A DNA stretch of 64,000 nucleotides. Origin: Escherichia coli (lineage in GTDB: Bacteria; Pseudomonadota; Gammaproteobacteria; Enterobacterales; Enterobacteriaceae). Position 1 is the stretch's first letter; each line of letters begins with the position of its first letter. The DNA lies in assembly GCF_046105845.1 (NCBI RefSeq), contig NZ_CP151004.1; one strand, given 5' to 3'. Position numbers: made by a program. This document shows, in pieces, positions 49,101-52,100 of this stretch.

Positions 49101-52100
49101 GGCAGTGGCTCGCTGGTTGATCTTAGCCAGTACGGTTTGCCGAAAGAGCCAATGCCGCAGGAGTTGATTGCGGCGGGCGTCAGTCTGGTGAGCTTCTCCG
49201 GCGACAAGTTGTTAGGCGGGCCGCAGGCAGGAATTATTGTTGGTAAAAAAGAGATGATCGCCCGCCTGCAAAGCCACCCGCTGAAGCGTGCATTACGCGC
49301 GGATAAAATGACCCTCGCGGCGCTGGAAGCCACGTTGCGTCTTTATTTACACCCTGAGGCGCTGAGTGAAAAATTACCGACCCTGCGTCTGCTTACCCGC
49401 AGCGCAGAGGTCATTCAAATCCAGGCACAACGTTTACAGGCCCCCCTTGCGGCACATTACGGCGCGGAGTTTGCGGTACAGGTTATGCCATGTCTTTCGC
49501 AGATTGGCAGTGGTTCGCTGCCGGTTGATCGCCTGCCGAGTGCGGCATTAACGTTTACACCCCATGATGGACGCGGTAGCCACCTTGAGTCATTAGCCGC
49601 CCGCTGGCGTGAATTGCCAGTGCCGGTGATTGGTCGTATTTATGACGGACGATTGTGGCTGGATTTACGCTGCCTAGAAGATGAGCAACGGTTTTTGGAG
49701 ATGTTGTTGAAATGATTATTGCGACTGCCGGACACGTTGACCACGGCAAAACAACCTTATTGCAGGCGATTACTGGCGTAAATGCCGATCGTCTGCCGGA
49801 AGAAAAAAAGCGCGGCATGACTATCGATCTCGGCTATGCCTACTGGCCGCAGCCGGATGGTCGCGTGCCTGGTTTTATCGACGTACCCGGTCATGAAAAG
49901 TTTCTTTCCAACATGCTGGCGGGCGTTGGTGGTATCGATCACGCGCTGTTGGTGGTGGCGTGCGATGACGGCGTGATGGCACAGACCCGTGAGCATCTGG
50001 CGATTTTGCAGCTGACCGGTAATCCGATGCTGACAGTGGCGCTGACCAAAGCCGATCGCGTGGACGAAGCGCGTGTTGATGAGGTTGAACGCCAGGTAAA
50101 GGAGGTGCTGCGGGAATACGGTTTTGCTGAGGCAAAACTGTTTATCACCGCAGCAACCGAAGGTCGGGGAATTGATGCCCTGCGCGAGCATCTGCTTCAG
50201 TTACCAGAACGCGAACACGCCAGCCAACATAGTTTCCGCCTCGCGATCGACCGCGCATTTACCGTAAAAGGTGCCGGGCTGGTCGTCACCGGTACGGCGT
50301 TAAGCGGGGAAGTGAAGGTAGGCGATTCACTATGGCTGACTGGTGTAAATAAACCGATGCGCGTGCGTGCGCTACATGCGCAAAATCAGCCAACAGAAAC
50401 TGCCCATGCCGGGCAGCGTATCGCGCTTAACATCGCGGGTGATGCGGAAAAAGAGCAGATTAACCGTGGCGACTGGCTGCTTGCCGATGCGCCGCCGGAG
50501 CCGTTCACACGGGTGATTGTCGAGCTTCAAACCCATACACCGCTGACCCAGTGGCAGCCGCTGCATATTCACCACGCCGCCAGCCACGTCACGGGACGCG
50601 TTTCGCTGCTGGAAGATAACCTTGCCGAGCTGGTGTTCGACACGCCGCTGTGGCTGGCGGATAACGATCGCTTAGTGCTGCGCGATATCTCGGCCCGCAA
50701 CACGCTGGCGGGGGCGCGTGTGGTGATGCTTAACCCGCCGCGTCGCGGTAAACGTAAGCCGGAATATCTGCAATGGCTGGCGTCACTGGCACGGGCGCAG
50801 AGCGATGCCGATGCGTTATCTGTTCATCTGGAACGCGGCGCGGTTAACCTTGCCGATTTCGCTTGGGCACGGCAGCTCAACGGCGAAGGGATGCGCGAAC
50901 TATTGCAACAGCCTGGCTATATTCAGGCTGGTTATAGCTTGTTGAATGCGCCGGTTGCCGCCCGCTGGCAGCGGAAAATTCTCGACACATTAGCGACTTA
51001 TCATGAGCAACATCGCGATGAACCTGGTCCTGGGCGCGAACGTCTGCGACGTATGGCGTTGCCAATGGAAGATGAAGCGCTGGTACTGTTGCTGATTGAA
51101 AAGATGCGCGAAAGCGGCGACATCCTCAGTCATCACGGCTGGCTGCATCTGCCAGATCACAAAGCGGGATTCAGCGAAGAGCAGCAGGCCATCTGGCAAA
51201 AAGCAGAGCCGCTGTTTGGTGACGAGCCGTGGTGGGTGCGTGATCTGGCAAAAGAGACGGGAACCGACGAGCAGGCAATGCGCCTGACGCTACGCCAGGC
51301 GGCGCAGCAAGGAATTATTACCGCGATCGTTAAAGATCGTTATTACCGTAACGATCGGATTGTCGAGTTTGCCAATATGATCCGCGATCTCGATCAGGAG
51401 TGTGGTTCAACCTGCGCGGCGGATTTCCGCGATCGCTTAGGTGTAGGCCGAAAGCTGGCAATTCAGATTTTGGAATATTTTGACCGCATTGGCTTTACGC
51501 GGCGTCGTGGAAATGATCATTTATTGCGCGACGCATTATTATTTCCGGAAAAATAATGAGATAATTAATTAAGATTAATTAGGAAACACTCTAAAAATCT
51601 TATTAATTTTTAAAAAAGCACATTCGGATGTGCTTTTTTTATGGCCTCTTATAAAAAGAGCAATAGCGGTCATGTTTTCAAATAAAAACACTTCGTAAGC
51701 TTCTCGCCCTTTTATACTCGTTCAGGAGTGTGTTATGGCTGCTTCCACCTTTTTTTATTCCTTCCGTTAATGTCATTGGTGCAGATTCTTTTAAAGATGC
51801 GATGAATATGATGGCGGAATATGGTTTTCGCCGTACATTAATTGTGACTGATAGTGTGCTAACAAAATTAGGTATGGAGGGTGATGTACAAAAAGCATTA
51901 CAGGAACGTGATATTTTTAGCGTAATTTATGATGGTACGCATCCTAACCCGACCACAAAAAACGTCGCAGAAGCTCTTAAAATGCTGACGGAAAATAATT
52001 GCGATAGCGTGATTTCTTTAGGTGGTGGTTCCCCGCACGACTGCGCAAAAGGCATTGCGCTGGTGGCAGTTAACGGCGGCGATATTCGCGATTACGAAGG

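Follow-up and report, generated by a model that had tools for sequence, protein, structure and literature searches.

In a 64,000-nucleotide stretch of an Escherichia coli contig (NZ_CP151004.1; hereafter the window), the first of two tandem Fe-dependent alcohol dehydrogenase (ADH) genes, paralogue 1, is out of frame with its own start codon, which raises the question of whether this gene is dead, is expressed by an unconventional route, or has simply been misread. The original prediction had placed one extra T in a T7 homopolymer at codons 6-7 and had left a choice between a sequencing or assembly error, a genuine pseudogenisation, and a slippage-prone tract giving ON/OFF switching. We conclude that paralogue 1 is an ordinary pseudogene, and the evidence for this is set out below, from the frame structure of the locus to the fate of the gene in related lineages.

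All of the features described here lie on the plus strand. A Shine-Dalgarno (SD) sequence, AGGAG (51724-51728), which is the same as in the canonical E. coli yiaY leader, stands 6 nt from the ancestral start ATG (51735-51737). By direct reading, this ATG opens a truncated 11-codon frame (51735-51770), namely ATG GCT GCT TCC ACC TTT TTT TAT TCC TTC CGT TAA, which ends at the TAA at 51768-51770 and thus denies paralogue 1 an uninterrupted frame from its SD-linked start. MAASTFF, with which the truncated frame begins, is the conserved YiaY-family N-terminus. The homopolymer (51750-51756) is exactly 7 bases long and marks the site of a +1-nt insertion into an ancestral T6, and the YiaY-type Fe-dependent ADH body that follows it (the pseudogene body, 51757-52884) lies in the +1 frame relative to the gene's own ATG. 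The ADH frame (51730 modulo 3) runs without a stop from 51730 until the TAG at 52882-52884 and is colinear with paralogue 2 from 51757 onward. Direct reading thus bore out the predicted stop at 51768 in the frame of ATG 51735, with the remainder of the ADH in the +1 frame, as well as the equivalent sequence ACC TTT TTC ATT in paralogue 2. The proposed cause, one extra T, proved correct as well: canonical yiaY, in its allele that shares the leader TTCAGGAGTGTGTTATGGC, reads ACC TTT TTT ATT (T6), and therefore one added T accounts exactly for the shift in paralogue 1. A role for the 11-codon ORF as a leader peptide or riboswitch was considered and rejected, as this ORF is simply the shifted ADH N-terminus; an Rfam scan of 51300-54700 returned two sub-threshold chance matches only.

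We examined the identity of paralogue 1 by comparison with curated families and with E. coli YiaY (b3589), a Fe-dependent group III ADH annotated as L-threonine dehydrogenase. Whole-protein scores against NCBIfam NF007363 (the YiaY/L-threonine dehydrogenase equivalog) were 798.1 bits for repaired paralogue 1 and 796.1 for paralogue 2, both above the curated cut-off of 581, and PF00465 (Fe-ADH), PF13685, and PF25137 are on record as precomputed domain matches. Paralogue 1 shares with E. coli yiaY the selB-aldB position, the leader, and the SD, and its repaired product has 89.5% amino acid identity to YiaY; unlike YiaY, it is frameshifted at codons 6-7, carries H267Y, and has lost R301. At the DNA level, the identity to E. 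coli yiaY is only ∼83%, though the flanks are 97-99% identical. The closest solved structure is that of Zymomonas mobilis ADH2 (3OWO/3OX4), and repaired paralogue 1 is colinear with 3OWO over residues 1-382. The long-term dN/dS relative to E. coli yiaY is 0.06, at a dS of 0.86, and therefore paralogue 1 was constrained for most of its history, and its inactivation is recent relative to the divergence. In a protein search for a close intact orthologue or donor of paralogue 1, nothing exceeded ∼90% identity except frameshifted alleles, and a literature search on yiaY yielded no account of a duplication or pseudogenisation of this gene.

Paralogue 2, located 360 bp downstream of paralogue 1, encodes an intact 383-aa YiaY-type ADH (53245-54396; NF007363) and would supply redundancy. 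Paralogue 1 is followed by a hairpin and then a T-run (52889-52923), and paralogue 2 by a homologous terminator-like hairpin (54402-54436). Both genes reside in a divergent segment of ∼3 kb (51557-54500) that is ∼80-88% identical to E. coli yiaY DNA, whereas the flanks of this segment (selB on one side, Fic/aldB on the other) are 97-100% identical. None of 5,426 complete E. coli genomes contained the 3-kb selB-Fic segment, which is rare and apparently introgressed. As a separate observation, residues 31-68 of paralogue 2 hold an unusual concentration of changes.

The extra base was present in 38/38 loci covering the site, and in all 10 haplotypes. These loci derive from ∼30 samples (SRA-run assemblies, ENA metagenome assemblies, and 5 NCBI genome assemblies), and more than 30 of the 38 were fetched via the neighbouring paralogue 2, a selection independent of the state of paralogue 1. 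Nine of the ten haplotypes carry T7, and the tenth (L022) carries TTTATTT, which leaves the frame shifted; neither T6 nor T8 occurred as an allele of paralogue 1 among the 38 loci and 10 haplotypes. Relative to the intact canonical yiaY, the change from T6 to T7 is thus an inherited disabling lesion and not an artefact.

Further lesions have accumulated in sister haplotypes, on the T7 background. A nonsense change, K326* (AAA to TAA, at the window equivalent of 52705), is present in L024, L026, and L027, and an 11-bp deletion (52709-52719) is present in L025 and L037-L042; the two are mutually exclusive, and the corresponding 325-aa and 362-aa ORFs were found on 9 and 15 contigs, respectively. 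Polymorphism in paralogue 1, counted over a small number of sites (16) in closely related haplotypes, amounts to one indel and 14 N : 2 S, a ratio compatible with neutrality (binomial p = 0.39). The corresponding counts are 3 N : 5 S for paralogue 2 (p = 0.02 against neutrality) and 5 N : 15 S for Fic (p = 1.6e-6), and paralogue 1 differs from paralogue 2 and Fic combined in Fisher's test (p = 0.0004). Paralogue 1 therefore combines relaxed selection (14 N : 2 S) with further disabling changes in its sisters.

The encoded protein departs from its family at 13 columns, each without variation among 104 other members. Among these departures are (i) the replacement of the family-invariant active-site His267 by Tyr (TAT codon, 52534-52536), which changes HAMAHQLGG to HAMAYQLGG, and (ii) a one-codon deletion (52630-52638) that removes the family-invariant Arg301 beside L300F, changing ARLRDC to ARFDC. 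Three of the 13, namely M193L, L300F, and P366L, are polymorphic: each is a derived state within the window's own series of haplotypes, and no synonymous change went with them. Of these, Met193 to Leu (TTG codon, 52312-52314), next to Asp194 in the invariant TGMDALTH metal-site motif, is found in the window haplotype only; the F/L difference at 52633 has F as its derived state; and Pro366 to Leu (CTT codon, 52831-52833), also at an invariant residue, is confined to the window, L002, and L009 haplotypes. All four metal ligands (Asp194, His198, His263, and His277) are kept, and it is at His267, Met193, and the deleted Arg301 that the window allele lacks the residues of a functional enzyme. The roles of the metal-ligand residues and of the catalytic-water His267, including H267 in FucO, have been described previously (PMC10087678). 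We also considered H267Y as proof of inactivity and downgraded it, since a FucO H267Q variant keeps its kcat (PMC10087678) and human ADHFE1 naturally has a Tyr at this position (PMC5125639). The description of the remainder of the gene as an otherwise intact ADH is thus accurate insofar as the window copy bears neither another stop nor another indel, but fails with regard to H267Y, the one-codon deletion, and the three recent replacements of invariant residues. Of the explanations first offered for the frameshift, genuine pseudogenisation is the one that these data support, through the disabling lesions of the sister haplotypes, the neutral-looking polymorphism, and the loss of invariant residues.

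We put at roughly 0.88 the probability that paralogue 1 is a pseudogene with the following history, as read from sequence comparisons. Replication slippage would have added a single T to the T6 run (ACC TTT TTT ATT) at codons 6-7 of a yiaY-type Fe-ADH gene, one that occupies the ancestral yiaY position immediately after selB and has the ancestral leader and SD. Ribosomes starting at the strong ATG 51735 would then join only 11 residues before terminating at 51768-70, leaving the ADH body essentially untranslated, and we infer that full-length protein is nearly absent. The loss would have been tolerated because intact tandem paralogue 2 lies nearby. The lesion became fixed in the whole E. coli sub-lineage with the two-gene haplotype, and the paralogue 1 copy has drifted neutrally since, gaining missense changes at invariant residues and, in sister lineages, the nonsense codon and the 11-bp deletion.

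A functional paralogue 1 could also result from initiation at one of two in-frame non-ATG codons, GTG 51730 and CTG 51739 (51730-51741), which are the starts chosen by gene callers for an "intact" protein of 384 aa or 381 aa, respectively; the NCBI pipeline names the CTG 51739 product an intact 381-aa L-threonine dehydrogenase. The ORF is indeed open from 51730 to 52884, and such a product, in which MLWLLPPFF or MLPPFF would replace MAASTFF, would be changed in just ∼5 N-terminal residues, all before the first conserved strand. However, we regard function by this route as very unlikely. GTG 51730 lies only 1 nt past the SD (CTG 51739 lies 10 nt from it), and the canonical E. coli yiaY leader has this GTG too, though out of frame; therefore, it is an ancestral feature and not a newly evolved start or a new adaptation. 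Initiation at CUG reaches just 0.02-3% of that at AUG (bioRxiv 10.1101/063800), and both codons would have to compete with the strong SD-linked ATG 4-5 nt away. Further, the ORF is without purifying selection and carries the stop and deletion lesions in sister haplotypes. The value of the present result is mainly for annotation: public pipelines either call the locus intact (381/384 aa) from the CTG or GTG or omit it altogether, and for the two-copy haplotype only one YiaY-type enzyme, not two, should enter metabolic reconstructions as functional.

Without a further stop or indel, the window allele may still give a low-level functional product. The U7 could allow rare +1 ribosomal slips or transcript-length errors, and measurements on E. 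coli test genes have put non-programmed frameshift suppression at 1-10% (PMC10861913). An extension of this idea, which we consider very unlikely, would make the window allele a "pseudo-pseudogene", in which rare U7 +1 slips, or starts at CTG 51739 or GTG 51730, yield small amounts of a divergent YiaY variant (H267Y, R301 lost) that handles substrates differently, perhaps useful to some lineages under particular conditions.

Highly improbable, in our assessment, is a programmed event that brings a regulated share of the products back into frame, be it +1 ribosomal frameshifting on UUU UUU U or transcriptional slippage on U7. The UUU-U sequence does let tRNA-Phe re-pair in the +1 frame, and homopolymeric A/T runs are a known substrate for RNA polymerase slippage (PMC1088944; PMC5574713), but direct reading revealed no stimulator: the run is followed by UAU, which is a frequently used sense codon and neither a stop nor rare, and an internal SD-like sequence 3 nt upstream is lacking. 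At 7 nt, the T7 run is shorter than the ∼9 nt from which selection against slippage becomes evident in many genomes (PMC1088944), and restoration of the frame would require the transcript to lose one base (or gain two), and E. coli transcript deletions rarely start in homopolymers (PMC5574713). With the run also interrupted in L022, a conserved slippery site with stimulators is absent, and the post-shift ORF shows no purifying selection, being neutral and broken again in sister lineages by the nonsense and deletion lesions downstream.

The suggestion of a slippage-prone ON/OFF tract, that is, of a phase-variable contingency locus in which the T tract gains or loses a base at high frequency, appears barely credible. 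A frameshift in a mononucleotide run near a start codon is the usual place of a translational phase switch; yet tract-length polymorphism was zero across the 10 haplotypes and 38 loci, and close relatives showed the OFF state only. The intact 382-aa (ON) protein of any of 5 haplotypes had no exact match among ∼15 billion proteins, and the members of the protein cluster were only 384, 381, 362, 325, or 358 aa long. In L022 the run is broken while the frame is still shifted, and sister lineages retain stop and deletion lesions further downstream. Besides, in E. coli with proficient mismatch repair, an A/T run of 7 nt falls far short of the tracts of known contingency loci, and T7 was seen in the canonical yiaY of 0/1786 complete E. 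coli genomes carrying the T6 allele. The switching proposal is therefore left unsupported by the absence of length variants, of an ON product, and of canonical T7 alleles, as well as by the interrupted run of L022.

Finally, the proposal that the extra T is a sequencing or assembly error, with a true T6 and an ordinary intact gene, has next to no probability and is already refuted for this lineage: although homopolymer miscounts are a frequent consensus error and the shift amounts to exactly one base within the run, the same extra base (an identical T7) recurs at 37 other loci from ∼30 independent samples, several assemblers, and 5 NCBI assemblies, with T6 in none, and the downstream DNA decays in the manner of a pseudogene.

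Our preferred reading, inactivation of paralogue 1 by an inherited frameshift, makes the locus a small, tidy case of stepwise pseudogene decay, in which the frameshift came first and was followed by independent nonsense, deletion, and missense hits; it has no bearing on open questions about recoding or phase variation. Like contingency loci and programmed slippage sites, such as the prfB +1 frameshift and the transcriptional slippage sites of Shigella mxiE (T9) and Thermus dnaX (A9) (PMC1088944), paralogue 1 has a homopolymer at a frame junction near the 5' end of the gene; unlike them, its run is only 7 nt long, is without length variation or stimulators, and is interrupted in one haplotype, and its downstream ORF is not conserved. 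The arrangement also resembles the non-functionalisation of tandem duplicates, with two YiaY-type genes 360 bp apart, each with a homologous terminator hairpin, of which paralogue 2 is under purifying selection while paralogue 1 decays. However, this is not the loss of a fresh duplicate, as the paralogues are old and divergent (dS ∼1.0, 84% amino acid identity) and both were long constrained before paralogue 1 died. The closest parallel is with ordinary bacterial frameshift pseudogenes arising from single-base indels in short homopolymers, which are catalogued in E. coli/Shigella and Salmonella (PMC9122581, PMC3711429). As in these, a one-base insertion in a mononucleotide run leads to a stop a few codons on, and the lesion is lineage-inherited and accompanied by later stops and deletions and a relaxed dN/dS. 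Nothing essential sets paralogue 1 apart from them; its particulars are that it is the positional orthologue of yiaY, that the two-copy haplotype to which it belongs is rare and divergent, and that its lesion is masked by alternative-start annotation.

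Direct reading of positions 51720 to 51780 (gttcAGGAGtgtgttATGGCTGCTTCCACCTTTTTTTATTCCTTCCGTTAAtgtc) confirmed every detail of the original prediction for the start of paralogue 1, the upstream gene of a tandem pair of yiaY-type alcohol dehydrogenase (ADH) genes. The Shine-Dalgarno (SD) sequence AGGAG (51724-28) lies 6 nt upstream of an ATG at 51735, whose frame contains a run of exactly seven T residues (T7; 51750-56) and encodes an 11-residue peptide before stopping at TAA (51768-70). The rest of the ADH is, as had been claimed, carried in another frame, by a long ORF one base ahead of the ATG frame that opens at GTG 51730 and ends at TAG (52882-84); from 51757 on, its product is colinear with that of paralogue 2 (53245-54396). 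Paralogue 1 occupies the ancestral yiaY position and retains the ancestral leader (TTCAGGAGTGTGTTATGGC, identical in canonical E. coli yiaY), and the canonical gene with this leader reads ACC TTT TTT ATT, which is a run of six (T6). The lesion is therefore a single-T insertion converting T6 to T7, the cause originally put forward. At least two 5' alleles of canonical E. coli yiaY were seen (retrieved loci L023, 3066-3100, and L046, 3828-3790 on the minus strand), namely the T6 allele (ACC TTT TTT), present in 1786 complete genomes at ≥99%, and the K-12-type allele (ACG TTC TTT), which lacks any run and occurs in ∼3548 genomes at 90-95% identity to the T6 allele.

Contigs were fetched by exact-protein look-ups, mostly with paralogue 2 variants, so that retrieval was independent of the state of paralogue 1, and 38 loci from ∼30 samples (SRA-run assemblies, ENA metagenome assemblies, and five NCBI assemblies) covered the T-run site. 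The extra base was present in 38 of 38 loci and in all 10 paralogue 1 haplotypes, as T7 in nine of them and as TTTATTT, with the frame still shifted, in the tenth (L022), which led us to reject the earlier suggestion of a sequencing or assembly error. On these comparisons, a real, fixed single-base homopolymer frameshift has inactivated the upstream member of a tandem YiaY-type ADH pair.

The proposal that a slippage-prone tract switches the gene ON and OFF has no support in the assembled sequences considered here, switching within a clonal population being a matter for raw reads. Neither a T6 nor a T8 allele of paralogue 1 occurred among the 38 loci and 10 haplotypes, the L022 run is broken yet shifted, and the intact 382-aa products of five haplotypes were absent among ∼15 billion proteins; the relevant protein clusters contain only 384-aa (GTG call), 381-aa (CTG call), 362-aa, and 325-aa members and a 358-aa fragment. 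Further, T7 did not occur in canonical yiaY in any of the 1786 complete E. coli genomes with the T6 allele, so at the level of the population the T run is no hot spot for mutation.

Genuine pseudogenisation, the remaining option of the original prediction, is upheld by secondary lesions, neutral-like polymorphism, and the loss of family-invariant residues. Two further lesions, mutually exclusive among haplotypes, occur on the T7 background: (i) an AAA-to-TAA change (K326*, window-equivalent 52705) in loci L024, L026, and L027 and (ii) an 11-bp deletion (52709-52719) in L025 and L037-L042. The T7 shift is common to all haplotypes and is therefore older than both. Among the substitutions that segregate in paralogue 1, 14 are nonsynonymous (including one nonsense change) and 2 are synonymous, which fits the 0.77 nonsynonymous expected under neutrality (p = 0.39), whereas the corresponding ratios are 3:5 in paralogue 2 (p = 0.02 versus neutral) and 5:15 in the neighboring Fic gene (p = 1.6e-6), with Fisher's test separating paralogue 1 from both neighbors (p = 0.0004). 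Paralogue 1 also departs from 13 columns that are otherwise invariant among 104 other family members, including H267Y and loss of R301; three of the 13 (M193L, L300F, and P366L) are polymorphic, forming a stepwise derived series up to the window haplotype with zero synonymous changes alongside. In FucO, H267 forms a hydrogen bond to the water proposed as catalytic, and in the H267Q variant kcat is not lowered although K0.5 rises 8- to 32-fold (PMC10087678); human ADHFE1 naturally contains Tyr at the equivalent position (PMC5125639). H267Y should therefore not be taken as proof of lost activity. Against E. coli yiaY, paralogue 1 gives a dN/dS of 0.06 at a dS of 0.86. For most of its history the gene was thus strongly constrained, and its death is comparatively recent, yet predates the divergence of the sampled haplotypes.

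GTG 51730 lies only 1 nt past the SD. The canonical yiaY leader contains this GTG too, there out of frame, and it therefore did not evolve as a compensatory start after the frameshift. CTG 51739 has a workable spacing of 10 nt, but CUG initiation reaches only 0.02-3% of that at AUG (bioRxiv 10.1101/063800), and both starts face competition from the SD-ATG, which is well spaced and lies 4-5 nt from them. Sterically, a +1 ribosomal slip on UUU UUU U could occur, but the T7 site has nothing to stimulate it (next codon UAU, no internal SD). Frame restoration in the transcript requires the loss of one base or the gain of two; in E. coli transcripts, insertions increase with run length and deletions seldom start in homopolymers (PMC5574713), and across many genomes transcriptional slippage is selectively visible from runs of ∼9 nt (PMC1088944). 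A trickle of product may be made; reports on test genes put non-programmed frameshift suppression at 1-10% (PMC10861913). The evolutionary pattern shows that no such product is kept by selection. Paralogue 1 is now, by this evidence, an ordinary decaying pseudogene.

Prodigal-type callers report paralogue 1 as a 384-aa ORF starting at GTG 51730, and four NCBI records (P0140, P0141, P0144, and P0145) list a 381-aa "L-threonine dehydrogenase [Escherichia coli]" with the N-terminus MLPPFFIPS, corresponding to CTG 51739. Such CTG-start, "intact" 381-aa NCBI proteins include HCX5476358.1, MCN2719939.1, HBB8111600.1, HFX4494130.1, and HBA6839197.1, among others. The K326* assemblies L026 and L027 have no CDS annotated at this position. 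Public annotation thus hides the frameshift, and the value of the finding lies in a corrected annotation and a clean example of stepwise decay.

Repaired paralogue 1 and paralogue 2 each score ∼797 bits against the YiaY equivalog NF007363 (cut-off 581); among solved structures, Zymomonas mobilis ADH2 (3OWO) is the nearest. Paralogue 2 is intact. Of its 20 lineage-specific amino-acid changes, 13 form a cluster at residues 31-68 of the dinucleotide-binding region (53335-53450), a stretch whose DNA is only ∼70% identical to E. coli yiaY, versus ∼85% elsewhere. The cluster includes a change of Asp39, invariant otherwise and the NAD-versus-NADP discriminator of group III ADHs, to Gly; it could reflect a cofactor switch or a recombination patch. 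Three E. coli YiaY entries (P0001, P0006, and P0007; 437, 426, and 407 aa) contain internal tandem duplications, with ARLRDCAA present four times in P0007; these represent artefacts of assembly or else genuine expansions of in-frame repeats.

The window is E. coli because its selB is 98.8% identical to that of E. coli, and the gene order, with Pfam labels, is selA, selB, paralogue 1 (51730-52884), paralogue 2 (53245-54396), a Fic-domain protein gene (54526-55821), and aldB. The ∼3 kb from the selB stop (51557) to ∼54500 show just 80-88% identity to E. coli yiaY DNA, with 97-100% identity to E. coli in both flanks, and the two-copy haplotype was found in none of 5,426 complete E. coli genomes (best match, 83.7%). 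Within this block (51557-54500), dS is ∼0.9-1.0, whether measured against canonical E. coli yiaY or between the paralogues. A protein database search found no close intact orthologue or donor of paralogue 1, the nearest relative, frameshifted alleles aside, being canonical E. coli YiaY (89.5% amino-acid identity). The block resembles a haplotype that was introgressed or is very old, the donor being absent from the protein database. A single-copy variant (L028 278-1429, a Logan SRR21291477 contig) has one ADH between selB and Fic, of which the C-terminal part (∼280 residues) is identical to paralogue 2 and the first ∼100 residues are very different; this mosaic suggests repeated recombination at the locus. 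A palindromic motif of 31 nt (ACTATCTCAAAA...TTTTGAGATAG) occurs twice, 50 nt apart, immediately upstream of the Fic gene (54441-54471 and 54491-54521) and looks operator-like, and a degenerate remnant between the ADH paralogues (52981-53012) suggests that the unit that was duplicated originally took in the beginning of the Fic upstream region. Downstream of aldB in this haplotype (∼57.7-58.4 kb; loci L001 and L003) lies a HicA toxin/HicB antitoxin pair (61 and 136 aa), in the place where K-12 instead carries yiaW and yiaV.
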